A stretch of DNA of 64,000 bases, from positions 129,814-193,813 of the forward strand of contig OY762933.1 in assembly GCA_963666765.1 (NCBI GenBank), read 5' to 3'. A program made the position numbers and the translations under genes. Origin of the DNA: Gammaproteobacteria bacterium. GTDB lineage: Bacteria > Pseudomonadota > Gammaproteobacteria > Steroidobacterales > Foliamicaceae. Below the pieces are notes generated by a model, which saw only the letters and a list, made by a program, of their open reading frames with translations, ran no database searches and was not told the DNA's origin. Shown in pieces: positions 51,364-63,893 of the stretch (position 1 is its first letter; each line of letters starts with the position of its first letter).

Positions 51364-51843
51364 ATGGACGCAAAGGTTTCGTTCACGCTGAACGGCAAGA
51401 GCGTCGATGCCGAGACTACCGGCGCGACGCTGCTGGTGGATCTGCTTCGCAACCATTTCGGACTGACCGGCGCCCACGTGGGTTGCGACACCAGCCAGTG
51501 CGGCGCCTGCGTGGTTCATGTCGACGGCGTCTCGGTCAAGAGCTGCACCATGCTGGCGGCGCAGGCCGAGGGGCGAACGGTAGAGACGATCGAGGGCCTG
51601 GCCAGCAACGGCGAACTGCATCCCGTTCAGCAGGCGTTTCATGAGCACCATGCCCTGCAATGCGGATTCTGCACGCCGGGCATGATCATGAGCGCGGTCG
51701 ATCTGCTGCGCCGAAACCCGCGGCCCAGCGAAGTCGAAGTGCGTGACTGGCTGGAGGGCAATATATGCCGCTGCACCGGCTATCACAACATCGTGAAGGC
51801 CGTGCGCGCGGCGGCGGCCGCAATGGGTGAGGAGGCGTCATGA
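51364..51843 (+). CDS. coxS: (2Fe-2S)-binding small subunit of a molybdo-flavoenzyme
   Basis: 159 aa. [16 protein letters not shown] and [11 protein letters not shown]...GNICRCTGY cluster motifs. Confidence 0.92.
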
Positions 51844-54236
51844 GCGGCGAAATGGGAATCGGCGTCTCGGCGCCACGCACCGAGGACCGGCGCTTCATTA
51901 CCGGCAGGGGCCGGTATGTTGACGACATCAACCTGCGTTCGCAGCAATATGCCTGGTTCGTTCGCTCCCCCCACCCGCATGCCGAGGTGCGCGGCGTGGA
52001 CGCGGCGGACGCATTGAAGATGCCGGGCGTTACGGCCGTGCTGACGGGAGCCGACATGCAGGCCGACGGTGTCGGGCCTCTGCCCGTGGCCTGGGGCATA
52101 ACCAGCAGGGACGGCTCGCCCGCCTTTGAGCCCGAATTTCCGGGGCTGGCCACCGATCGTGTGCGCTACGTGGGCAACGCGGTGGCGGTGGTCGTGGCCG
52201 AGTCGCGGTCCCAGGCCCGGGATGCCGCCGAGATGGTGAGCGTGGACTATGGGGAACTGGAGTCCGTGGCCAGCGCAACGGCCGCGCTGGAGGAAGGCGC
52301 CCCCCAGATTCATGAAGGCGCGCCCGGCAACCTGTGCTTCGACTGGGAGTGGCTGCCGGCGGCCATGGCGCCGGACGCCAGGGCGAACACGGACAAGGCC
52401 TTCAAGGAGGCCGCGCACGTCGTATCGCTGGAACTGGTCAACAACCGCCTGGTTCCGAACGCCATGGAACCCCGCGCCAGCCTGGCGGACTTCAATCCCG
52501 CCACCGGTCAGCTCACGCTGTACACCACCAGCCAGAACCCGCACGTCAACCGCCTGCTCTTGTGCACCGCCACGCTGAAGATGCCGGAGCACAAGGTGCG
52601 GGTCGTGGCGCCGGACGTCGGCGGCGGCTTCGGGTCGAAAATCTATCACTACGCCGAAGAGCTGACTGTGTGCTGGGCCTCGCGGCGGCTGGGCGTGCCG
52701 GTGAAGTGGACCGCCGAGCGCAGCGAGTCGTTTCTGACCGATGCGCAGGCGCGCGACCATGTGACCCGCGTGGAACTGGCGCTGGATGCCGAGGCGCGGT
52801 TCACCGGCCTGCGGGTGGACACCATCGCCAACCTGGGCGGATGGCTGTCGGCCTTCGGTCCGGCCATTCCCACGGTGTTCTATGCGCCGTTGCTGGCTGG
52901 GGTCTACAAGACACCCAACGTCTACGTCACCGTCAAGGGCGTGTTCACCAACACCACGCCGACCGATGCGTACCGGGGCGCCGGGCGTCCGGAAGCCTGC
53001 TACGCGGTGGAGAGGGTCGTGGAAGAAGCCGCGGTGCAGCTCGACATGGACCCGGCCGAACTGCGCCGGCTGAATTTCATCCAGCCCGACGAGTTTCCCT
53101 ACCAGTCACCGGTCGGGCAGCTCTACGACTCGGGCGATTTTGAAGGCTGCCTGGATCTCGCCAGCAAGCTGAACGCCTACGACGAGTTTCCCGAGCGGCG
53201 GAGACAGAGCGAGAAAAGGGGCAAGCTGCGCGGCCGCGGCATGTGCTTCTACATCGAAGCCTGCGGCGCCGCGCCTTCGCAGGCCGCCGGGCAACTCGGC
53301 GCGCGCGCCGGGCTCTACGAGGTAGCCACCGTTCGGGTGCATCCCACCGGCAGCGTGCAGGTACTGACCGGGGCTCACAGCCACGGGCAGAGCCATGAGA
53401 CCACCTTCGCGCAGATCGTCGCGGAGCGCCTGGGCATCGATTTCGGCAATGTGGAAGTGGTTCACGGCGACACCGGCGAAATCCCGTTCGGAATGGGGAC
53501 CTTTGGCTCGCGTTCCCTGGCCGTCGGCGGAACCGCCCTTTACAAGGCCATCGACAAGGTGGAGGAGAAGGGACGCAAGATCGCCGCCCACTTGCTCGAA
53601 GCGGAGGCCGACGATATCGAGTTCACCGAGGGCGAGTACCGGGTGGCCGGCACCGACCGTGCGGTGTCCTTCGGGGATGTCGCGCTGGCGGCGTACGTGC
53701 CGCACAACTATCCGCTGCAGGAACTGGAGCCGGGGCTGGAAGAGACCGCGTTTTTCGATCCGGAGAATTTCACCTTCCCGTCCGGATGCTACATCTGCGA
53801 GGTGGAAGTGGACCGGCAAACCGGCCAGGTCGATCTGCGCGATTTCGTTGCCGCCGACGACTTCGGCAACATCATCAACCCAATGGTGGTGGAAGGCCAG
53901 GTGCACGGCGGGCTGGCGCAGGGCATCGGGCAGGCGCTGCTGGAGCATTGCCTGTATACGCCCGAAGGCCAGTTGCTCAGTGGTTCGTACATGGACTACT
54001 GCATGCCGCGTGCCGACGATTTGCCGAATTTCGTCGTGGCGACGCGCTGTACGCCCACACCCTTCAACCCACTGGGCGTCAAGGGTTGCGGCGAAGCTGG
54101 CGCGATCGGCGCGCCGCCGGCGGTCATCAATGCCGTTCTCGACGCGCTGCGCCCGCTGGGCGTCAGGCATATCGACATGCCGGCCACGCCGCAGGCCGTG
54201 TGGCAGGCGATACAGTCCGCGCGGTCCGGCGGGTAG
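51840..54236 (+). CDS. coxL: xanthine-dehydrogenase-family molybdopterin-binding large subunit, form-II CoxL-like
   Basis: 798 aa. Active-site loop AYRGAGR at 52968..52988, not the AYRCSFR of bona fide CO dehydrogenases. Confidence 0.88.
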
Positions 54237-54250
54237 AGGAGGATAGAGCG

Positions 54251-55048
54251 ATGCGCGAATTCAATTACTACCGCGCGGGTTCCGTGCGCGACGCGGCCAA
54301 GCGCCTGAGCGCGAGCGGGAACGCCATGCTGCTGGCCGGCGGAATGACACTGTTGCCGGCGCTCAAGATGCGCCTGAATCAACCCGGGGAACTGATCGAC
54401 CTGGCCGATCTCGGCGAACTCAAGGGCATCAGGCTGAGCCGCAAGGGCGCGCAGGTCGGCGCCATGACCACCCATGCGGAGGTTGCGGAGAACGTGGAGT
54501 TGCGCGCCGCGATTCCGGTCCTGCCGCATGCGGCGGAATCGATCGGCGATCCGCAGGTGCGCAACCGTGGAACGCTGGGCGGTTCGCTGGCCAACAACGA
54601 TCCCGCGGCCGACTACCCGGCGGTTGCGCTGGGACTGGGCGCCACCATCATCACCAACAAGCGCAAGATTTCCGCGGACGACTTCTTTACCGGGATGTTC
54701 GAGACGGCGCTGGGACGCGGAGAGATGGTCACCCAGGTGCTGTTCCCGATACCGCAGCAAGCGGGCTACGCGAAGTTCCCCAATCCCGCCACGCGCTACG
54801 CGCTGGTGGGCGTTTGCGTGGCGCAGTTCAAGACGGGTGTTCGGGTGGCCGTGACCGGCGCCGGCGCATCGGTTTACCGCCTGGAGGATTTTGAGGACGC
54901 GCTGAGTGACGAGTTCTCCGAAGTCGCGCTGGACGGGTTGACCGCTTCCTCGGCGAGCCTGAACGACGACATGCATGCTGGCGCCGATTACCGTGCGCAC
55001 CTGGTGGGCGTCATGGCCCGCCGCGCCGTTGCAATGGCCCTCGACTGA
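54251..55048 (+). CDS. coxM: FAD-binding medium subunit of a molybdo-flavoenzyme
   Basis: ATG 54251 gives MREFNYYRAGSVRDAAKRLSASGNAMLLAGGMTLLPALKMR, typical of CoxM/FAD_binding_5. Confidence 0.9.
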   Translation: MREFNYYRAGSVRDAAKRLSASGNAMLLAGGMTLLPALKMRLNQPGELIDLADLGELKGIRLSRKGAQVGAMTTHAEVAENVELRAAIPVLPHAAESIGDPQVRNRGTLGGSLANNDPAADYPAVALGLGATIITNKRKISADDFFTGMFETALGRGEMVTQVLFPIPQQAGYAKFPNPATRYALVGVCVAQFKTGVRVAVTGAGASVYRLEDFEDALSDEFSEVALDGLTASSASLNDDMHAGADYRAHLVGVMARRAVAMALD

Positions 55049-55057
55049 GGTTCGGCG

Positions 55058-55115
55058 CTCCTCCGGGAGCGAAGGCGTCTCGCCTTCGACGAGGGCGGAC
55101 GCCCTCGCTTCCGGG
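55058..55115. repeat. REP-like element (copy 10)
   Basis: CTCCGGGAGCGAAGGCGTCTCGCCTTCGACGAGGGCGGACGCCCTCGCTTCCGGG. Two hairpins nested in a GGGAGCGA/TCGCTTCC outer stem. Confidence 0.7.
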
Positions 55116-55124
55116 CAGGTGGAT

Positions 55125-56018
55125 ATGAATATGAACGCGTTACCGGAGTCCGTGGAGCAGGTTCACGGTCTGCTGGAAGGGCAGGACTACATCGCCGGCG
55201 AGCGCCTGAGCACTGCCGTTTTTCTGGCGCTAAGCCTCAAGCGCCCGCTTTTCCTGGAGGGAGAGGCCGGTGTCGGCAAGACGGAACTGGCCGTCGTGCT
55301 GGCCGCGGCGCTCAAGCGCCGCCTCATCCGCCTGCAGTGCCATGAGGGCCTGGACCTGGCCGGGGCGGCGTACGAATGGAACCATGCGCGGCAGATTCTG
55401 GCCATTCGTCTGGCCGAGGCGGAGGAGCGCGTGGACGATATGTCCGGGGACCTCTATTCGCGCGAGTTTCTGATCGAACGCCCGCTGCTCGAGGCGCTTT
55501 CGCCCTGTCCGGAGGGACCGCCGGTGCTTCTGGTTGACGAACTGGACCGGGCCGACGAGCCGTTTGAGGCCTATCTCCTCGAATTTCTGTCCGATTTTCG
55601 TATGAGCATTCCCGAACTGGGAGAGATCCGGGCGCCTGAGGCGCCCATCGTGGTGCTGACTTCCAATCGCACCCGCGAGGTGCACGACGCGCTCAAGCGC
55701 CGCTGCCTGTACTGCTGGCTGGACTACCCGACGCAATCCGCCGAGGACCGCATACTTCAGGCCCGCGTGCCGGGACTGCCCGATGCCCTTCGCGCCAGAG
55801 TTGTCGGCTTCGTCCAGGGCCTGCGCAAGGAAGGCCTGTTCAAGTCGCCGGGCGTGTCGGAGACGCTGGATTGGGCGGAATCGCTCATGGCCATGGGCGC
55901 CCGCGAAGTCGATACGAAAGCGGTCTCGGAAACGCTCGGCGCCCTGCTCAAGTACCAGGAGGACCTGGAGCAGGTCGACGAGTCCGTTGTCGACCGGCTC
56001 CTCGCAGCCTCAGTGTGA
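55125..56018 (+). CDS. coxD: MoxR-family AAA+ ATPase (CoxD-like)
   Basis: ATG 55125. Walker A GEAGVGKT, Walker B VLLVDELDRA. Confidence 0.9.
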   Translation: MNMNALPESVEQVHGLLEGQDYIAGERLSTAVFLALSLKRPLFLEGEAGVGKTELAVVLAAALKRRLIRLQCHEGLDLAGAAYEWNHARQILAIRLAEAEERVDDMSGDLYSREFLIERPLLEALSPCPEGPPVLLVDELDRADEPFEAYLLEFLSDFRMSIPELGEIRAPEAPIVVLTSNRTREVHDALKRRCLYCWLDYPTQSAEDRILQARVPGLPDALRARVVGFVQGLRKEGLFKSPGVSETLDWAESLMAMGAREVDTKAVSETLGALLKYQEDLEQVDESVVDRLLAASV

Positions 56019-57184
56019 TCAAGCGGGACGCTCTCGCTCCCGGGAGGAGCGACCCGGCCCTGTCGCATCGCATCGTCAGTTTCGTGCGCACGCTGCGCGC
56101 CGCGGGTTTGCCGCTGGGCGTGGGCAAGAGCGCGCTGGCGCTTGAGGCCGCGAAGCGCATCGACATCGGCAACCGCGCCGAGTTCTCCGCTGCGCTGCGC
56201 TCGGTCCTGACCGTCAGTCCCGCCGAGGGCGTGCTGTTCGATTGCGCTTTTCCCATGTTCTTCGGCAACTCCGCGGCCTTTGCGCGGCTTGGCGACCTGC
56301 ATGAGCTCGGTCTGCGTTCTCTGGGCGACGTCAAGCCCCCGCCGGGAGCCCTGCGCCTGCTGCGCGCCATGGACAGCGCATCCAACCTGATTGCCGCGCC
56401 CGGCGCCCAGCGGGCCATTGCGGGCGCCGGCTATTCGCCGCAGGAACGGCTCGCCTCCAGGGACTTCGCCCAGATGACGCCGGAGGAACAGGACCAGGCG
56501 CGCGAACTGCTGCGGCGCGGCGTGCTCTGTCCCAGGCGCAAGGGAAGGCGATACAAGGCCGCCGCGCATGGAGCGCGGATCGACCTGCAGGCCACTTTGC
56601 GGGCGGGCCTCGCGTCCGGCGGCGAGCTGGCGCAACTGAAGCGCAAGACGCGCCGTGACGAACCCATGTCGCTGGTGCTGCTGTTCGACGTTTCAGGCTC
56701 CATGACCACCTATGCACGCATGGCCATCCATTTCGCCCACGCGCTGTGCAGCGCCCGCCGCAACGTCGAAGTGTTCGTTTTTGCAACCCGCCTGACCCGG
56801 GTGACCCGCGAACTGCGCGGGCGGGATGGGGACGTGGCGACCGCCGCGGCGCTCGCGGCCGCCCCGGACTGGGAAGGGGGCACGCGCATCGCGTCCGCCA
56901 TTGGCCAGTTCAACCGGCAATGGTCGCGGCGGGTGCTGGCCCGGCCCGGCATGGTGCTGCTGTTCAGCGATGGCCTGGAGCGGGCCTACGTCGAAGAACT
57001 GCGTTTCGAGGCGGCGCGCCTGCGGCGATCCTGCAAGCGCCTGGTATGGCTGAATCCGCTGCTGGGCTATAAGGGTTTCCAGCCGCGGGCCCGCGGCGTG
57101 CTTGCGCTGCTGCCCGCCGTGCACGAGCATCGCGCGGCCCATAACGTCGAAAGCCTGCTGGGGCTTGCCGACGCGTTAGAGTAG
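56015..57184 (+). CDS. coxE: VWA-domain protein (CoxE-like)
   Basis: GTG 56015 overlaps the coxD stop (GTGA). MIDAS motif LLFDVSGSM. The last ~68 codons are duplicated at 62962..63174. Confidence 0.85.
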   Translation: MIKRDALAPGRSDPALSHRIVSFVRTLRAAGLPLGVGKSALALEAAKRIDIGNRAEFSAALRSVLTVSPAEGVLFDCAFPMFFGNSAAFARLGDLHELGLRSLGDVKPPPGALRLLRAMDSASNLIAAPGAQRAIAGAGYSPQERLASRDFAQMTPEEQDQARELLRRGVLCPRRKGRRYKAAAHGARIDLQATLRAGLASGGELAQLKRKTRRDEPMSLVLLFDVSGSMTTYARMAIHFAHALCSARRNVEVFVFATRLTRVTRELRGRDGDVATAAALAAAPDWEGGTRIASAIGQFNRQWSRRVLARPGMVLLFSDGLERAYVEELRFEAARLRRSCKRLVWLNPLLGYKGFQPRARGVLALLPAVHEHRAAHNVESLLGLADALE

Positions 57185-57279
57185 GCCGCTACACTTGCGC
57201 TGTAGAGTGGAGAACCATCAAGATCAGCACATTTCCATTGCCATAGTCACCGGAATGCCCCACAAGCTGGAATTTCCTG

Positions 57280-58929
57280 CTATTGATATAAGAATGCCGC
57301 GGCACTGGAAACTCGGTTCAGTGTGGAGCGCACCTCGTATAGCAAATCGTCTGCTGGAATATCAGGGTCTTGACCGGCCATCTCGTATCCCAGTGCCATT
57401 GAATATTCCGAGAAGGCAATTTCATACGACAAACGTCGAAACGCCAGATCCTCCGGACCACCCGTCTTGAGTGCTTTAGCTACGACTGGATGATCAAGAT
57501 TAATAATGATCCGCAATGCTGCATCGTCATATACAGATCGTGCTTCGTCAGAACCCAGGTTTTCGTAGCCAACGCTGAAGCCGCCTTTTGGTTTCCGGCG
57601 TTTTCCTGATCCTCCCGATGGTGATACGCTATCGACACCCGCCGGATTTGGTAAGCCGCTTGCTTGCAATTGAGGATTGGGGCGGTTTTGTGGTTTCCTC
57701 GACTCGGTGACGGTTGTCATTTCAGGCTTGTCCACATCGCCCGGAGTGTCAATTCCTTGGATCCAAGATGAATGGTCCTCCCCAGCTGATTGTCCAGAGC
57801 CAAACAGGGAGGTTGCCGAACCCGCTTTTGATGTGGCTGAGCGAATTTCCGCTAACCGATCTTGCACTCGCCGAAAGTCATCGTTCAGGACATCAGAGAT
57901 CTTATTTGCTTCCGCCGCCAACCTACGTGCCTGTTCTGATCGCTGTTCATTCCTATAGTCCTCAGCTAATTGTTTTCGAACCCTCTCCAGGTTTGCACCG
58001 AGAAAGCCGACCAAGACACGAACAACCGGGTGCTCTGGGTTTAGTTGTAAGGAGCGGGAATCGTCATAGGGCTCAATCCGAGATTCGAAAGTCTCTATTG
58101 CCGGCACGTCAATTTCGCCAAACAAATAGGAGCCGTGATCCTTCCGCGTTATTCCACAATCTTCGATTCCCACTAAATTCCCGACGCCTGCCGAGATGCG
58201 GATTCCCCGATCGAATTCTTCCAGAGGTATTTTCGAAACCTTGACAATTAGTTCAACATCGCCAATGACTTTGCTCTGCTGATCTGATGGTCGAAACGAA
58301 TGAGTTGCCGCCGTGTCTGGTTCTTTGTAGTCGCAGACATGGTCGTTGACAGCCACAAAAGGCGCTGAACTCCGAAACACCTGAAGGTGCCGTTCAATGT
58401 AATCTACTATCGCTGGCATCGGAATCTTGTTTACAAAGATGTCCGAAATCGTGACTAACGTACCGTTGGGAAGTGTCGTTGGCTCGCCAGAAACAATATG
58501 CGTAACAGGAATGTCTCCCCCATCCGAAGCTTCGATATCCTCGCGCGTGAGTGCCGTGACGTTGCGTAATCCGTCTCGGCGGGTCTCGATTTTGAGGCAG
58601 TTACCAATTCCGAATGCGGCAGATTTTCCCGTGCCGAATTTTCCTCTGCCAGGTCGTCCTCTGGCTCGCTCGATATTCTCCGCATGCATGGTGAAAAAAT
58701 GCTCCAGCCCCTTTTGGTCCATGCCGCGGCCGTTATCGTCTATTTGGATGACCTTCTTTCGCGGAAAGAGCGTCACCTGCACGCGCGGCGATACGCCACG
58801 ATCGAGGTATTGCAAACTGTTAACTACGTATTCCCAAATGACGGCGGGCACATTCTTGAAAGCCGCCGCGGACGAGAGTAAATCGCGTCCGACATGTGAC
58901 GTTAAAGCTAGCGGACTATTGGTATTCAT
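57280..58929 (-). CDS. GHKL-superfamily (MORC/Hsp90-type, HATPase_c_3-like) ATPase with coiled-coil and disordered basic region
   Basis: 549 aa. Bergerat motifs: I WEYVVNSLQY (E..N), II IQIDDNGRGMD, III GRGKFGTGKSAAFGIG. Charged helical stretch (RKQLAEDYRNEQRSEQARRLAAEANK), low-complexity S/G/P/K region, then an uncharacterised ~110-aa C-terminal domain. Confidence 0.75.
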   Translation of the reverse strand: MNTNSPLALTSHVGRDLLSSAAAFKNVPAVIWEYVVNSLQYLDRGVSPRVQVTLFPRKKVIQIDDNGRGMDQKGLEHFFTMHAENIERARGRPGRGKFGTGKSAAFGIGNCLKIETRRDGLRNVTALTREDIEASDGGDIPVTHIVSGEPTTLPNGTLVTISDIFVNKIPMPAIVDYIERHLQVFRSSAPFVAVNDHVCDYKEPDTAATHSFRPSDQQSKVIGDVELIVKVSKIPLEEFDRGIRISAGVGNLVGIEDCGITRKDHGSYLFGEIDVPAIETFESRIEPYDDSRSLQLNPEHPVVRVLVGFLGANLERVRKQLAEDYRNEQRSEQARRLAAEANKISDVLNDDFRRVQDRLAEIRSATSKAGSATSLFGSGQSAGEDHSSWIQGIDTPGDVDKPEMTTVTESRKPQNRPNPQLQASGLPNPAGVDSVSPSGGSGKRRKPKGGFSVGYENLGSDEARSVYDDAALRIIINLDHPVVAKALKTGGPEDLAFRRLSYEIAFSEYSMALGYEMAGQDPDIPADDLLYEVRSTLNRVSSAAAFLYQ

Positions 58930-58931
58930 TG

Positions 58932-59540
58932 CTATTCACCTTTACTCACTAACTGCGACATGTCTGTTAGGAAACTCGAAATCTCAGGGTCATTGCTAAA
59001 TAAATTCAACAATCGATCGATTTTTAGACTCAGCATATCGGGCTTCGTATAACTATCAATCCTAAATATTTCTTTGGCCTGAGTAGCCTTAACGGATTGC
59101 GGATTCTCCTGCCATTGTCGCCATGCTGCGGACGACTGCAGTCTCTTGGATTCTCGATCGGTCCGTACCGTATCGACTGAACCAGCACGACGAGATTCAT
59201 TGGATCCCAACGAAAAATCACATTCAAGTAGATTGAGGTTGGCCTCAATCCACTTGTTGCCTGTGGCTGTAAGCGCCCAGCCTTTCCGCCCTGATCCTCT
59301 CAATAGTGTTCCCTTGTCGGGCTTCTTTGCATTCGACAAGCAAACCCGGACTAACTCAAGATTTATCTGTTTCGGGTACTTGCGCCAGCCGAATCGACGT
59401 GGTGCAAGTTCGAAAGCCTTGATGGCAACATCTTCCGTGTCAATGAATCTCTGAGCGCCACCTAGCTGGTAGACTGCTAGTGTGACTATTTCTGATTGTC
59501 CAATCTCTTTTGTCAAGTGTTTATTTGAATATTTTGACAT
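58932..59540 (-). CDS. hypothetical protein, possible winged-helix N-terminal domain; co-operonic with the GHKL ATPase
   Basis: 202 aa. The stop TAG lies 2 nt before the ATPase ATG, with AGGTGA inside its 3' end. The N-terminal ~100 aa (EIVTLAVYQLGGAQRFIDTEDVAIKAFELAPRRFGWRKYP...GWALTATG) looks wHTH-like by eye only. Confidence 0.6.
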   Translation of the reverse strand: MSKYSNKHLTKEIGQSEIVTLAVYQLGGAQRFIDTEDVAIKAFELAPRRFGWRKYPKQINLELVRVCLSNAKKPDKGTLLRGSGRKGWALTATGNKWIEANLNLLECDFSLGSNESRRAGSVDTVRTDRESKRLQSSAAWRQWQENPQSVKATQAKEIFRIDSYTKPDMLSLKIDRLLNLFSNDPEISSFLTDMSQLVSKGE

Positions 59541-59590
59541 GGCAATATACTATAGCATCTACTTCAAGTATGTTTCTTGGGATGTAAACA

Positions 59591-61861
59591 TTGACAAATG
59601 GTCGGGCCTGGGGCTTACCAAGCGTCCAGCTACTTCCCGCATCTCTAGGAAAACTGTGGGCTGGCGAAGAGCTGCCGTCTTGGGTAGTTACGCTAGGGCA
59701 ACTACCGTCGGGTGCAAGAATAGAGGACCTATGTAGACCACTACCCCTTGAACTTGAAGCAAATCACTTTGGTCGTTTGGTGAGGTTTGTTCTTAATCTC
59801 GTGCGAGGGCGAATCGGATCGATTGACTCAATCCAAACCGTTGAAACTGATTTTTTCGCAGGACTTCGACCGGAAAAAGTACCGTGGTCCCGAAGAACTG
59901 AGAGATGCTTGCGACAAGCAGGCCTGATGGAACGGCCATCTGACCTATGTCGGCTCACCTTTGGTGACTTACTACGGATTCCAGGTATCGGAATTCGTTC
60001 CGCACTTGAATTTGCGGTCATGCTCGAGATTTATTCTCGACGCGCATCTGAAAGAACTGGAGTCGATACTATTGAGATGATTGATGAGAAAGAACGGAGA
60101 CGGGAACTTCTAGTGCAAGAAGCGAGTGATCTTGATCAGCCGAAGACATATGTCTTGACTCAAGATTCCGATCAGCAGGTCTTGACTCTAGACGGGGCGC
60201 CAAAAGAGCAACAAGAGGACATATTAATTGACGCGGCTATTCAGCCATGGGCAGATCAGATTAGCGGTAGTGATCGGCGTTTTTCGGATCTTCTTGGTTC
60301 TAGTTCTGTCGTATTGATTGAGCGCATCGAAGACGCGTTGGATCGAGATAATGCTGCCGAAGCCGATGCTCTTGCCCGTATTCTCGGCCCGTTAAAGGAA
60401 AGAATTGAGAGGATCGAATCTCTATCCTTGGAAGACGCGTTGCTGGAACTCTTCAATGCGGCCACTGGAGACTCGCGCGACCGAAATCGTGAATTGATTC
60501 GGCGGTTTGGATGGAATGGTGAGCCACCAGAAACGCTCCAGCAAGTTGGTGATCGCCTACGCGTAACGCGTGAGAGAGTCCGTCAAATTCAATCCCGAAT
60601 CGTTCGCAATCTACCAACGCATTCCGTGTTTCTGCCCCAGCTGCAAAGCGCGGTTGATGTCTTGGAAGAAGTTAGCCCGATAGCAATTGAAGATGCCGCC
60701 AAGTTGCTCCAGGAACGAGGAATCAGTCGGCGTCCTTTCCACCCGAAGAGCGTCATAGTTGCAGCTAGCGATTGCAACATTGTGACGCCCTTAAGAATCC
60801 AATCGATCCGCAGAAAGAAGATTGTCACAGCCAAAACTGGCGATAGAGTGGTAAGACGCTTGGCCTCTATAGCACGTGCGCAGAGCGGAGCAAGTGGCGC
60901 AACTGATGTGCTTGGAGTTTTGGACCAAGCCATGAAAGAAGAACTGATCTTTGAAGAAGAGCGCGCCGCCCGGTTGATTCGCAGCCTTCCGGACCTCCAA
61001 TGGCTTACAAACGATTGGTTTTGTGTCCGTTCAGTCCCAATTGAGCGAAATCGTCTTCGCAATGTTGCCCGGAAGATGCTCAGCGTAACCTCACCAATCC
61101 ATGCGGGAAAAATCCGAGCAGGTATGCGAAGAACTGTGACTTGGCGAAACGCAACTTGGAGCCAACACCGTTGGCCTATGCGTGCGCCACCCGAAGTTGT
61201 TGTTCGACAATTTCTTAAGAATCATCCGGAGTTTACGGTTGAAACTGAAGGCTTGGTCTATCCTGCAGAAGAATTGGACTACCGGAATGAGCTTGGCGCT
61301 GCAGAATGCCACATGGTTGATGCTATTCGTTCTACGCCTGCCGGAGTATTGGATCGACAATCAATTCGAGATAGTTGCATAAGAAAGGGGGTCAATCCGC
61401 ATACGCTAGAAGTGAGTTTGACCTACAGCCCGGTAATAGAACATCTTGGCGTTAACCTTTGGGCGATTGCAGGGGCGAACGTTGATCCCGCCGCCGTCGA
61501 AGCCGTTAGGAAAGCGAACGCTTTGCGGCCGAGGGAGAAACGCATAAGCGATTTCGGTTGGACCGATAAAGGAGAAATATGGATTTCTGTAATTATCCCC
61601 TCCTACCATACGTCATCATTTGTCTTCGGCGTGCCAGGCGGAGTCAAGAAGTTCCTAGTTGGCCAACGGTTTAGAGCAAGGGATGACTTGGGGAGAGCGT
61701 ATGGAGATGTTGTCGTGAACCCTGAAGGTACTGCCTATGGGGCAGGCCCCCTGCTTCTTCGAAAGGGTGCTGACTCGGGAGATATAGCCCTGTTCAGATT
61801 TGATCTGTCAGGAAATATTGTCACCATTAGCGTTGGTGGTGATGAATTATCAGAGGGTTGA
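59591..61861 (+). CDS. large protein with RNAP alpha-CTD-like HhH module and sigma-70 region-4-like HTH; C-terminal ~400 aa uncharacterised
   Basis: 756 aa from TTG (no in-frame ATG near the 5' end). Residues ~99-146 WSRRTERCLRQAGLMERPSDLCRLTFGDLLRIPGIGIRSALEF resemble alpha-CTD (..VRSANCLK.AGI....DL......ELLKI.NFGKKSL.EI). Residues ~301-341 ELIRRFGWNGEPPETLQQVGDRLRVTRERVRQIQSRIVRNL match sigma r4.2 (TLEEIG..FGVTRERIRQIE.KALRKL). No sigma region 2 is seen. Confidence 0.7.
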   Translation: MTNGRAWGLPSVQLLPASLGKLWAGEELPSWVVTLGQLPSGARIEDLCRPLPLELEANHFGRLVRFVLNLVRGRIGSIDSIQTVETDFFAGLRPEKVPWSRRTERCLRQAGLMERPSDLCRLTFGDLLRIPGIGIRSALEFAVMLEIYSRRASERTGVDTIEMIDEKERRRELLVQEASDLDQPKTYVLTQDSDQQVLTLDGAPKEQQEDILIDAAIQPWADQISGSDRRFSDLLGSSSVVLIERIEDALDRDNAAEADALARILGPLKERIERIESLSLEDALLELFNAATGDSRDRNRELIRRFGWNGEPPETLQQVGDRLRVTRERVRQIQSRIVRNLPTHSVFLPQLQSAVDVLEEVSPIAIEDAAKLLQERGISRRPFHPKSVIVAASDCNIVTPLRIQSIRRKKIVTAKTGDRVVRRLASIARAQSGASGATDVLGVLDQAMKEELIFEEERAARLIRSLPDLQWLTNDWFCVRSVPIERNRLRNVARKMLSVTSPIHAGKIRAGMRRTVTWRNATWSQHRWPMRAPPEVVVRQFLKNHPEFTVETEGLVYPAEELDYRNELGAAECHMVDAIRSTPAGVLDRQSIRDSCIRKGVNPHTLEVSLTYSPVIEHLGVNLWAIAGANVDPAAVEAVRKANALRPREKRISDFGWTDKGEIWISVIIPSYHTSSFVFGVPGGVKKFLVGQRFRARDDLGRAYGDVVVNPEGTAYGAGPLLLRKGADSGDIALFRFDLSGNIVTISVGGDELSEG

Positions 61862-62136
61862 TAAGGAAGGAGTTAAGGACATCATTCCTTTCGAGGAGAA
61901 AAACCCAATGCTCCACCGTGCCGCTAAGCGTCGCTCGCTATCCGCCCAACTGCTTGCCGCTGATCCGGTTTGGCCGTACCCGTTTCGCAATCCCCCAAAA
62001 CAAGAAGAGCTCGAAAATACGACCGGACATTTATGTGCTCTAAAATCGGACAAGTTTTGTGCTCTCTACACGAGCAAGGAAAGGCGAGCGTTGCCGCTAT
62101 ATGGTGGAACCCCTATAATCCGGAAAGACGGACGCA

Positions 62137-62511
62137 ATGTTGAAACCTCTCGAATGGATTGGGTCAAGCAAAGCGGATCTGAAGCAATTTCCCGATTCCG
62201 TGCAGGATCGCATGGGCTTCGCGATCTACCAGGCGCAGGCGGGTCTAAGGCACCGCGACACCAAAGTGCTGAAGGGCTTCGGTTCCGGTGTCCTGGAGAT
62301 TGTCGTGCGCCACGACGGCAATGCGTACAGGGCGGTTTATGTCGTCCGTTTCGAAGCTGCGGTCTATGTCCTGCACGCCTTCCAGAAGAAGGCGAAGCGG
62401 GGTATCGTCACACCCAGGAAGGAAATCGAGCTGGTCCGGAACAGGCTCGGTGCGGCCAAGAGGCATCACCGCGAAACGCTTGAGGGAAGACAAGACAATG
62501 AACCCATCTGA
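62137..62511 (+). CDS. RelE/HigB-like toxin (phage Gp49-like type)
   Basis: 124 aa. MLKPLEWIGSSKADLKQFPDSVQDRMGFAIYQAQAG...VLEIVVRHDGNAYRAVYVVRFEAAVYVLHAFQKKAKRGI matches this toxin family's consensus as I recall it. Confidence 0.85.
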   Translation: MLKPLEWIGSSKADLKQFPDSVQDRMGFAIYQAQAGLRHRDTKVLKGFGSGVLEIVVRHDGNAYRAVYVVRFEAAVYVLHAFQKKAKRGIVTPRKEIELVRNRLGAAKRHHRETLEGRQDNEPI

Positions 62512-62836
62512 TTCGAACGTGGAGGCCAGCAGCGGCAACGTTTTTGCGGACCTGGGGTTCCCCGGGGCCGATGCCCATCTTCTAAAGGCGGAACTCGTCA
62601 GCCGCATCGACGGCCTCGTGCGCCGGCGTGGCATCAGCCAGGCTGCGGCCGCGCGGCTGCTCGGCCTTGCCCAGCCGGACGTCTCGCGGCTGCTCAGGGG
62701 CGACTTCCGCGAGTATTCACTGGAGCGCCTGTTGCGCCTGCTGACTACGCTTGGCTGCGACATCGACATCGTTATCCGCCCGCAGCGCTCGGCAACGGGC
62801 GGCAGGCTGCGCGTGGCCGCTGCCGACACGGGCTAG
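62498..62836 (+). CDS. XRE-family HTH antitoxin (HigA2-like)
   Basis: ATG 62498 gives MNPSDSNVEASSGNVFADLGFPGADAHLLKAELVSRI...GISQAAAARLLGLAQPDVSRLLRGDF. Overlaps the toxin 3' end by 14 nt. Confidence 0.85.
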   Translation: MNPSDSNVEASSGNVFADLGFPGADAHLLKAELVSRIDGLVRRRGISQAAAARLLGLAQPDVSRLLRGDFREYSLERLLRLLTTLGCDIDIVIRPQRSATGGRLRVAAADTG

Positions 62837-62961
62837 ACGCGCAAGGGTGAGCGAAGCGAAGGCAGGGACGTCTTTCAGGAGTCAGGTTGGACTGCGTGCC
62901 GCCCGGAATCGTGCCCCGCGAGCTTGAACTGCCGCATAGGCACTATCACAACTCCGTTACC

Positions 62962-63174
62962 GAGCGGGCTTACGTCGAAGAACTGCGTTTTGAGGCGGCG
63001 CGCCTGCGGCGATCCTGCAAGCGCCTGGTATGGCTGAATCCGCTGCTGGGCTACAGGGATTTCCAGCCGCGCGCACGCGGCGTGCGCGTGCTGCTGCCCG
63101 CCGTGCACGAGCATCGCGCGGCCCATAACGTCGACAGCCTGCTGGGGCTTGCCGCCGCGCTGGAGGCTTGTTGA
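62962..63174 (+). pseudogene. orphan duplicate of the coxE 3' end (island-distal repeat)
   Basis: Reads ERAYVEELRFEAARLRRSCKRLVWLNPLLGYRDFQPRARGV..LLPAVHEHRAAHNV.SLLGLA, versus the same string at the end of coxE. About a dozen nt differences by eye. No upstream VWA body. Confidence 0.8.
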
Positions 63175-63231: not shown

Positions 63232-63606
63232 TCAGGTCGTCAGCGTGAGTCCCGAGTTTTCCAGCCGGAGGAAGTCCGCTTCATTGGCGGTGGCGAGGGC
63301 CGCGCCGTAAAACAGGGCCGCGGCCGCGATCATGCAGTCAGGCAGCGAACCGCGGCGGCGACCTGATTCGTTGAACAGGCGGGCCGCGATTGCGGCCTGC
63401 TCCTCTGTAAAATTGTGGCGCTGTCCCACGACTTCCCCGGCGAATTCCAGTTCATCCGGCGTGAGTGGCCCGCATAGCAATTCGGCCCAGGCAACCGCGC
63501 TCATACTCAATGGTTCGCCGGCTTCGACCCACCCACGCAATCTCCGGTCTTCCGGCGACCCGTGGGTAAGAGCCCGGATCAGGAAGCTGGTGTCCAACTG
63601 GATCAT
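63232..63606 (-). CDS. vapC: PIN-domain toxin
   Basis: 124 aa. MIQLDTSFLI... (first acidic residue), ...LATANEADFLRLE (last acidic residue). Overlaps the antitoxin stop by 4 nt. Confidence 0.88.
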   Translation of the reverse strand: MIQLDTSFLIRALTHGSPEDRRLRGWVEAGEPLSMSAVAWAELLCGPLTPDELEFAGEVVGQRHNFTEEQAAIAARLFNESGRRRGSLPDCMIAAAALFYGAALATANEADFLRLENSGLTLTT

Positions 63607-63893
63607 TGCGCTTTCGAGAGCACCCGCTTGCCGGTTTCGAGGCGCTCATCGTTTACTTCCTGTTCCCACCCCGAGAGATCAACCCCCCGCTCCCGCACGG
63701 AGGATTGCAGCCGGTCCAGCGCGTGCAAGGGGCCTGTTTTCTCCGGGCGGGTACTGGAAGCTGCAATGCGAATGGCCCTTCGCAGGACTTCAGACTTGGA
63801 AACCCTCCATCGCTGCGCCAGCGCTTCAAGCGTACGGACTGAGCCCACATCGAGGGTGTAGGTTGACTTGATAGTGGGTATGGCCATACTCAA
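63603..63893 (-). CDS. vapB: RHH/CopG-type antitoxin
   Basis: 96 aa from TTG 63893 (or ATG 63887). ...LEALAQRWRVSKSEVLRRAIRIAA is a ribbon-helix-helix signature. Confidence 0.8.
   Translation of the reverse strand: MSMAIPTIKSTYTLDVGSVRTLEALAQRWRVSKSEVLRRAIRIAASSTRPEKTGPLHALDRLQSSVRERGVDLSGWEQEVNDERLETGKRVLSKAQ

Follow-up and report, generated by a model that had tools for sequence, protein, structure and literature searches.

What can one bacterial protein do with homologues of both RNA polymerase modules that read the upstream part of a promoter, i.e., the alpha subunit's C-terminal domain (alpha-CTD) and region 4 of sigma-70, joined in a single chain? The question is raised by a gene in a 64,000-nt stretch of DNA from a gammaproteobacterium of the family Foliamicaceae (GenBank assembly GCA_963666765.1, contig OY762933.1, positions 129,814 to 193,813 of the forward strand); this whole stretch is called the window below. 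The gene occupies 59591..61861 on the + strand of the window, starts with TTG according to the open reading frame (ORF) listing, and encodes a 756-aa protein, predicted to be a multi-domain DNA-binding protein and referred to here as the big protein. The segment 59882-60613, singled out in an earlier reading of the bare sequence (the original prediction), corresponds to residues 98-341 of this ORF. The TTG start and the long form of the ORF are considered to be real, since homologues from other organisms start at the same conserved W-G motif, situated a few residues after the start.

The big gene belongs to a three-gene cassette, together with the genes of a conserved small protein and of a GHKL-type ATPase. 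Its most plausible role, held with slightly more belief than doubt, is that of the DNA-binding subunit of this cassette, autoregulating it by placing the alpha-CTD-like and sigma-4 modules on sites resembling UP elements and −35 hexamers. The evidence for this comes from the modules themselves and from the DNA between the divergent genes.

Two promoter-reading modules in one chain

The sigma-70 region 4 module, a helix-turn-helix (HTH) unit comprising regions 4.1 and 4.2, spans residues 296-345 (60476..60625, + strand), as delimited with PF04545, a Protein Data Bank (PDB) profile search and a gapless register. PF04545 covers residues 303-341 with E 3.8e-8 and 33.1 bits (gathering score 24.1), in line with the region 4.2 HTH originally placed at about residues 301-341, and it matches all 34 of the 34 aligned family members. 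Searched against the PDB, the excised segment retrieved primary sigma factors at E 3e-7, and the region-4 family profile reached E 5e-13. Residues 299-342 of the window protein align without gaps to E. coli sigma70 556-599, so that T326, R327, E328, R329, R331, and Q332 coincide with T583, R584, E585, R586, R588, and Q589, all of them identical and all involved in reading the −35 hexamer. The T-R-E-R-x-R-Q residues are invariant in the 34-sequence alignment, and the pattern (T/S)-R-E-R-x-R-Q recurs in nearly all of about 75 genome cassettes regardless of their gene order. Judged from these alignments, the sigma-4-like domain is a genuine homologue of the −35-reading module of RNA polymerase, with the DNA-contact residues retained.

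The remainder of a sigma factor is missing. In NCBIfam, the models of RpoD, RpoS, and RpoH align to the big protein by their last ~50-70 residues only, far under their cut-offs; no Sigma70_r2 model of Pfam or NCBIfam matched it, and neither did any Pfam model of the alpha N-terminal domain, so both absences claimed originally hold. Lacking sigma regions 1-3, the big protein is no sigma factor, and the tail which in sigma70 follows residue 599 is replaced by an array of winged helices. It could still be associated with RNA polymerase, the sigma-4 module docking on the beta-flap or competing for it and the alpha-CTD-like domain replacing alpha-CTD, as a pseudo- or anti-sigma factor which would redirect or block transcription at orphan −35 hexamers. 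This reading draws on the completeness of region 4 (4.1 and 4.2), which is closest to that of group 1/2 sigma factors, and on the NCBI name of the analogous protein MzaA, a sigma-70 family factor. It is nevertheless very unlikely, since a protein with no region 2 or 3 would be capable of neither core binding nor −10 recognition, and residues 350-750, i.e., most of the chain, represent further DNA-binding folds.

The alpha-CTD-like helix-hairpin-helix occupies residues 96-150 (59876..60040, + strand), encompassing the stretch of about residues 99-146 in which this fold had been noticed. Here, a single sequence says little: PF03118 gave no match to the window protein at E<=1, and the segment compared on its own with the alpha-CTDs of the PDB stayed at the twilight level (E 0.13-0.6). 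Hence, of the two Pfam searches proposed with the original prediction, that with PF04545 succeeded and that with PF03118 failed for the window sequence alone. At E<=0.1, PF03118 was found in 10 of the 34 family members, the strongest hit being an extra domain inserted in the homologue P0026. At the level of the family, the profile of the homologous 65-residue segment (24 members) retrieved RNA polymerase alpha chains from the PDB with a best E of 1.9e-6; every row down to E 0.24 was an alpha chain, and only the weakest few differed. The AlphaFold model of residues 1-155 (predicted local distance difference test score, pLDDT, 92) returned RNA polymerase alpha chains as all of its top seven PDB matches, and its superposition on the isolated alpha-CTD 7vpd_S, a comparison suggested at the outset, gave a template modelling (TM) score of 0.79 and a root-mean-square deviation of 2.0 Å over 55 columns with 27% identity. 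In a Foldseek search with the full-length model, the top 50 matches did not include alpha-CTD, being dominated by those of larger domains. The assignment holds, since the family profile and the fold support it despite the weak single-sequence match.

The residues that count for DNA binding have been preserved as well. The alpha determinant consists of R265, N268, C269, G296, K298, and S299 (E. coli numbering). R102 is invariant and aligned with the arginine of the V-R-S-x-N-C-L motif, that is, with R265, precisely the equivalence first proposed; G134 corresponds to G296 (invariant), S137 to S299 (conserved in at least 90% of the sequences), and R136 of the window protein stands at the position of K298. 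The family consensus reads R-T-R-N-C-L, and the window copy R-T-E-R-C-L. The domain is a genuine homologue of the UP-element-reading module of RNA polymerase with its DNA-contact residues retained, but, unlike alpha-CTD in the polymerase, it is not tethered to an alpha N-terminal domain. Some relatives carry more than one such unit: P0026 harbors an extra canonical PF03118 domain (residues 155-210, E 1.3e-16) in the linker, after the native one, and in P0029, P0031, P0032, and P0034 the N-terminal domain and the alpha-CTD-like unit are duplicated in tandem.

Both surfaces are known targets of phage takeover: Alt/ModA of phage T4 ADP-ribosylate alpha R265, and AsiA-type anti-sigma factors remodel sigma region 4. 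The domains were therefore originally thought to be possible decoys or guards, mimicking the host surfaces attacked by phage factors so that a hit on the mimic alerts the GHKL ATPase. Both mimicked surfaces are indeed present and the R265-equivalent arginine is invariant; the big protein evolves much faster than the ATPase, as sensors often do, and at several loci the surroundings of the cassette are of a mobile or defence type. The decoy would also be compatible with an operator function, as the operators would be vacated once the mimic is hit. Yet the conservation is explained equally well by DNA binding, since the very residues at issue, the R265 equivalent and those of the TRERxRQ helix, contact DNA. 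The position of alpha E261 (the "261 determinant", a sigma/activator contact) is not conserved, being P98 of the window protein in our own register, and the sigma tail past residue 599 has given way to the next domain. Moreover, most of the hosts are uncultured bacteria of soil and water, for which T4-like hijackers are not known. Overall, a decoy or guard seems decidedly unlikely.

TTGACA sites between the divergent genes

The cassettes come in three gene orders. In type A, to which the window belongs, the big gene is divergent from the small gene and the GHKL gene following it (big <-|-> small -> GHKL); type B reads small -> GHKL -> big (L033, L035, L040, L045-L049, L051-L053, L056-L065, and other loci) and type C big -> small -> GHKL (L032, L036, L043, L054). 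The big proteins of the co-directional cassettes lack the first ~90 residues, those of type B starting near profile position 90, and the type C proteins additionally lack the alpha-CTD-like domain.

In 33 non-redundant type A loci of widely differing organisms, the region between the two gene starts, extended by 60 nt into either gene, was scored for all 2,080 strand-symmetrised hexamers, which were ranked by the number of loci containing them. TTGACA/TGTCAA ranked first (31 of the 33 divergent loci), and the hexamers next in rank were its overlapping neighbours. Its 60 copies in 5.8 kb amount to 10.3 per kb, compared with 0.29 per kb in the remainder of these loci, i.e., an enrichment of ~35-fold. 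The window itself has three TTGACA within 86 bp of its divergent region and 13 in its whole 64 kb.

Two of the copies hold characteristic positions. Site 1 (59511..59516, − strand) lies on the strand of the small gene in codons 9-10 (Leu-Thr), is preceded by two A-rich tracts, and is found at this fixed position in 29 of the 33 loci; from the codon usage of each cassette, TTG-ACA would be predicted at this Leu-Thr pair in 1.2 of 33. Site 2 (59591..59596, + strand) lies on the strand of the big gene, within ~12 nt of whose start it occurs in 18 of the 33 loci. In the window, L001, and L005, it consists of the start codon TTG followed by ACA, and in L007, L009, L013, L016, and L025 it is read in another frame, straddling codons (nTT GAC Ann); being kept across different reading frames, it is evidently conserved as DNA and not as protein. 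The two sites face outward, ~80 bp apart. The third TTGACA of the window (59534..59539, + strand) overlaps the ATG of the small gene and is directed to the big gene, an arrangement recurring in L002, L010, L014, L019, and L022; it may serve as a third operator or else as the −35 hexamer in the promoter of the big gene.

The consensus leading to site 1 is aATGaaAAAAa.t.caaAAAAA..cTTGACAA. With TTGACA at −35 to −30, the A-tracts come to about −39 to −45 and −50 to −56, close to the positions of the proximal and distal subsites of an UP element. At the same time, no TAnnnT was found 17-18 bp past the TTGACA sites of the type A loci, and a scan of 57100-62200 for sigma-70 promoters and terminators returned no more than shuffled sequence did and nothing in the divergent region. 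The sites were also considered as −35 hexamers of ordinary outward promoters; this was rejected in view of the missing TAnnnT and because the transcripts would begin inside conserved coding sequence.

The sites were assigned to the big protein because the top-ranked hexamer is the consensus target of a domain whose reading residues are invariant. The clade with the sites is also that with the best-conserved alpha-CTD-like domain and with the extra N-terminal domain. A DNA- or UP-element-binding regulator of the island, the alternative offered with the original prediction, would fit both the retained DNA-contact residues and the combined A-tract/TTGACA sites.

In the mode of action preferred here, the alpha-CTD-like and sigma-4 modules would serve as ordinary DNA-binding modules. 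In the clade of the window, the two modules, flexibly linked, would bind the two outward-facing "A-tract + TTGACA" sites; seated at the 5′ ends of both divergent genes, the big protein would act as a roadblock or form a loop, repressing both transcripts. Its winged-helix array and its B3-like barrel (see below) would bind further DNA, and the GHKL ATPase would act as a clamp or switch driven by ATP. The effector might be the GHKL clamp itself, since none of the three proteins has a recognised nuclease domain.

Several observations weigh against this picture. The TTGACA enrichment is absent from type B and C cassettes, which keep the TRERxRQ helix all the same; hence, autoregulation at these sites cannot be the sole role of the sigma-4 module. 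It must do something else besides, the simplest possibility being that it recognises similar sequences elsewhere. Loss of TTGACA did not covary with changes of the sigma-4 helix, which is invariant also at loci without the sites. In the window protein, R105 takes the place of the Asn that most homologues have at the N268 position. No nuclease, methylase, or other effector was recognised in the three proteins, and the association with defence genes is modest, with few defence or mobility genes in the flanks. Finally, the hexamer was assigned by its match to the known specificity of region 4, and its actual binder could be the small protein or the host RNA polymerase.

This last point amounts to an explanation of its own: the TTGACA sites would be bound by the 202-aa partner or by the host sigma70 holoenzyme, and the modules of the big protein would read other DNA, e.g., that of an invader. 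The persistence of the sigma-4 helix in cassettes of types B and C with no TTGACA nearby would be expected then, and the small protein is a conceivable binder, being highly conserved and having a sequence pattern suggestive of a winged helix. It would, however, be left to coincidence that the top one of 2,080 hexamers is the consensus target of sigma-4 with A-tracts in UP-like register, and that the clade with the sites is distinguished by its alpha-CTD-like and N-terminal domains. Such a division of labour is regarded as unlikely.

An extension of the preferred mode of action would see in the big protein an RNA polymerase mimic acting as a guarded autorepressor. The modules would silence the cassette by occupying its UP/−35-like operators; an invader ADP-ribosylating R102 or remodelling sigma region 4 would free the protein from DNA, and this release would turn on or license the GHKL ATPase module. 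In a related, promoter-scanning variant, the strong "UP + consensus −35" modules of incoming DNA would be found, the GHKL clamp loaded, and the DNA silenced. The chances of either being true are rated as small.

Remaining domains, partner genes, and spread of the cassette

Apart from the two modules, the big protein comprises five segments (all on the + strand), and its full-length model has a mean pLDDT of 86. Residues 1-95 (59591..59875) form an N-terminal helical domain (AlphaFold2 pLDDT about 90-96) with no fold match in the PDB; in the fold search of residues 1-155, only the alpha-CTD part was aligned. The acidic linker between the modules, noted originally, lies at residues 156-201 (60056..60193); it varies in length, represents an insertion relative to most homologues, and is predicted to be disordered (pLDDT <50 at 156-166 and 180-201). 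Residues 205-295 (60203..60475), recognised by alignment invariants and by helices modelled with high confidence, constitute a conserved helical domain with an invariant D228-x-R230-F231 motif. The winged-helix-like array at residues ~350-645 (60638..61525; pLDDT mostly >88) was matched by Foldseek to the C-terminal winged-helix array of SelB, to AlkX/YcaQ, to Roco COR, and to forkhead domains. The chain ends with a B3-like beta-barrel at residues ~650-750 (61538..61840), matched by Foldseek to the B3 domains of VAL1, FUS3, and LEC2 (probability 0.99-1.0, TM 0.46-0.53, E 0.01-0.07, ~102 columns). The plant B3 domains share their seven-stranded pseudobarrel fold with the N-domain of EcoRII; a B3/EcoRII-N barrel found no support at the sequence level. 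No enzymatic domain was detected in the big protein with Pfam, NCBIfam, PHROGs, PADLOC, or Foldseek. Since its domains match DNA-binding folds and none matches an enzyme, the big protein looks like a chain of DNA-binding modules.

Both partner genes are divergent from the big gene, and the ATPase gene begins 2 nt past the end of the small gene. The small gene (58932..59540, − strand) encodes a conserved 202-aa protein, present in all cassettes and 40-84% identical among nine orthologues. It has no match in Pfam, NCBIfam, PHROGs, PADLOC, or the PDB, whether searched with the sequence or with a profile; its sequence pattern suggests a winged helix.

The third gene (57280..58929, − strand) encodes a 549-aa GHKL ATPase of the HATPase_c_3 type (PF13589, E 1.2e-13). 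Its Bergerat motifs are invariant in 30 sequences (E33, N37, N66, G69, G96, G99-T100-G101-K102, T157), and D65, G67, and G94 are kept by at least 90% of them, so the ATPase is apparently active. Its profile retrieved HtpG, GyrB, ParE, MutL, and Top6B from the PDB, and its N-terminal part resembles restriction enzymes of the BbrUII/HgiDII family (NCBIfam E 4.5e-13). A coiled-coil-like segment is followed by a low-complexity stretch rich in Ser, Gly, and Pro (residues ~375-450) and then by a well-conserved C-terminal domain of ~95 residues with invariant N477, F497, Y502, E503, and Y509 and no known homologue, a candidate effector or interaction domain.

The trio is complete in 75 of the 89 loci whose ORFs were searched with hidden Markov models, the rest being mostly cut contigs or decayed copies, and all eight contigs that were inspected for carrying a homologue of the big protein or of the ATPase had it as well. 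A scan with the small-protein alignment against one genome per species gave 80 loci, distributed over Acidobacteriota, Alpha-, Beta-, Gamma-, and Deltaproteobacteria, Actinomycetota, Chloroflexota, Planctomycetota, Verrucomicrobiota, Gemmatimonadota, Nitrospinota, Eremiobacterota, and others. An exhaustive profile search for the big-protein family collected 1,147 representative clusters (50% identity) at E<=1e-30. A linkage that survives the rearrangement of gene order strongly indicates that the three proteins work together, which bears out the functional link to the adjacent GHKL ATPase suspected from the beginning.

Among homologues, identity amounts to 55-78% for the ATPase vs 32-57% for the big protein, which looks like the fast-evolving DNA-recognition subunit of a self-contained cassette. 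No fourth conserved gene was found: the 150 flanking ORFs fell into 146 Pfam families, with a few genes of Cas1, integrase, Eco57I-type methylase, PIN, and ParAB among many housekeeping genes. Individual loci adjoin restriction-modification genes, toxin–antitoxin pairs, and transposases or integrases. Some cassettes have decayed (L009 4336-6428, L026, L050, L081), with the big or the GHKL gene split or with fragments only, which suggests frequent inactivation.

The phage collection contained no match to the cassette. The plasmid collection contained only distant relatives of the sigma-4 + winged-helix core, with 21-25% identity, no GHKL partner, and unrelated contexts, e.g., on the conjugative plasmid of Rhodoferax ferrireducens T118 (L090 4822-7380) and on the megaplasmid of Pseudomonas sp. 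Leaf58 (L091 5968-7047). One plasmid relative is annotated as an XRE family regulator and situated among many small hypothetical genes; another sits between the dnaE and dnaG genes of a megaplasmid.

In the window, the cassette lies on an island of ~6 kb with 49-52% guanine + cytosine (G+C), the remainder having ~66% G+C. A repeat search showed the island to be bordered by two 204-nt direct-repeat copies, 93% identical and 5,984 nt apart, duplicating the 3′ end of a coxE-type VWA gene: the left copy (56978..57181) is the 3′ end of coxE itself, and the right one (62962..63165) is its remnant, within an ORF (62887-63174) matching VWA_CoxE positions 161-221. No integrase was found among the island ORFs between the repeats. 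The island was inserted at the end of an apparent carbon-monoxide-dehydrogenase-type cluster (51840-57184, + strand) with an ORF resembling the large molybdopterin subunit and a MoxR-like AAA ORF, both putative, and with the VWA_CoxE gene (PF05762, E 1e-57); a close relative of the cassette (L005/L006) directly adjoins a VWA_CoxE gene, too. Downstream of the big gene, the island is shared by a toxin–antitoxin pair on the + strand, comprising a Gp49/HigB-type toxin (62137-62511; PF05973, E 4e-22) and an HTH_37/XRE antitoxin-like ORF (62288-62836; PF13744, E 5e-24), and Gp49 or HigB/HicAB pairs likewise flank the cassette in L004 and L009. Past the right repeat, two overlapping small ORFs (63232-63606 and 63603-63893, − strand) appear, by eye, to be VapC (PIN)/VapB-like.

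A low-GC island flanked by a direct repeat is also what would be expected of a conventional transcription factor that belongs to a prophage or integrative element and has no relation to the ATPase genes, the case set against its own proposal by the original prediction. Synteny refutes it in practice: the trio persists through three gene orders and is found in 75 of 89 loci, and neither a fourth conserved gene, nor an island integrase, nor a match in the phage collection speaks for such an element, so that this explanation is scarcely credible. The patchy phyletic spread, the low-GC island, and the occasional defence-island neighbours rather suggest, speculatively and with only moderate weight, that the cassette is a horizontally mobile conflict module, directed to defence or against mobile elements.

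Comparison with known systems

The cassette corresponds to no system of PADLOC-DB 2.0.0, in which it gave only a weak match to MzaA and a marginal one to REase_II (E 0.015), and no description of it was found in open-access papers and bioRxiv preprints. The big-protein family is absent from every curated family library and defence catalogue queried.

Among catalogued proteins, the nearest relative is MzaA, a component of the anti-phage system Mza (mzaABCDE; described by Gao et al. 2020, as cited in PMC9523054) and likewise a large sigma-region-4 protein encoded beside a GHKL/MutL-like ATPase. The likeness is limited: the big protein scores 20.9 bits with the PADLOC model of MzaA and 36.1 bits with NCBIfam NF041931 (cut-off 800), there at positions 606-705 of 726, so that the match extends over ~100 residues and covers region 4 only. 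The cassette has three genes vs five in Mza, lacks the Z1, AIPR-type, and other Mza components, and its GHKL protein barely matches MzaB (E 0.064).

As to the domain "grammar", the big protein resembles PglW of the type 2 BREX (Pgl) system, in which an alpha-CTD-like helical domain is followed by three winged-helix modules, and BrxL with its sigma-HTH-like domain; in both, a comparative analysis of 2026 has read these modules as DNA-binding parts of defence proteins (PMC12839542). This precedent supports the reading of the modules as ordinary DNA-binding units. The likeness is drawn from descriptions of architecture; unlike the big protein, PglW is a kinase-containing enzyme and BrxL an AAA+/Lon-like protein, and neither joins an alpha-CTD-like domain with sigma-4 in one chain or is paired with a GHKL ATPase.

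The ATPase invites comparison with prokaryotic MORC/paraMORC proteins, whose GHKL neighbourhoods link helicases, methylases, and nucleases (Iyer, Abhiman & Aravind 2008, PMC2292703). It is a HATPase_c_3 GHKL protein on a mobile island as well, but no helicase, methylase, or nuclease gene is conserved beside the cassette. By analogy with what was proposed for MORC/paraMORC (PMC2292703), it may be an ATP-driven DNA clamp or switch. Two further candidates for kinship with the ATPase were set aside on account of their different architecture: CapK/CapS, in which a GHKL-type kinase goes with a STAS repressor (PMC13373217), and the GHKL-Shedu fusion VcSduA (PMC12137116).

The pairing of alpha-CTD with sigma-4 recurs, because it is also found in the unrelated-looking family of P0041, an 875-aa metagenomic protein with HTH_3, two PF03118 domains (64.5 bits), and PF04545 (53 bits) in one chain. 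P0041 differs from the big protein in its extra XRE-type HTH, and the two share 27% identity over 23% of the query.

Overall, the cassette is classed with the GHKL-ATPase conflict-type cassettes having a sigma-like DNA-binding partner, and the candidate conflict systems thereby gain a GHKL-based one in which no nuclease can be recognised. The cassette is also a natural test case for the unproven idea that immune sensors mimic the host targets of phage takeover factors. If the role proposed for the big protein is true, bacteria reuse both promoter-reading modules of RNA polymerase, fused to each other, as the DNA-targeting head of a widespread ATPase system. What sets the cassette apart is that a single protein unites both RNA polymerase modules reading the upstream promoter, beside conserved orphan UP/−35-like sites.

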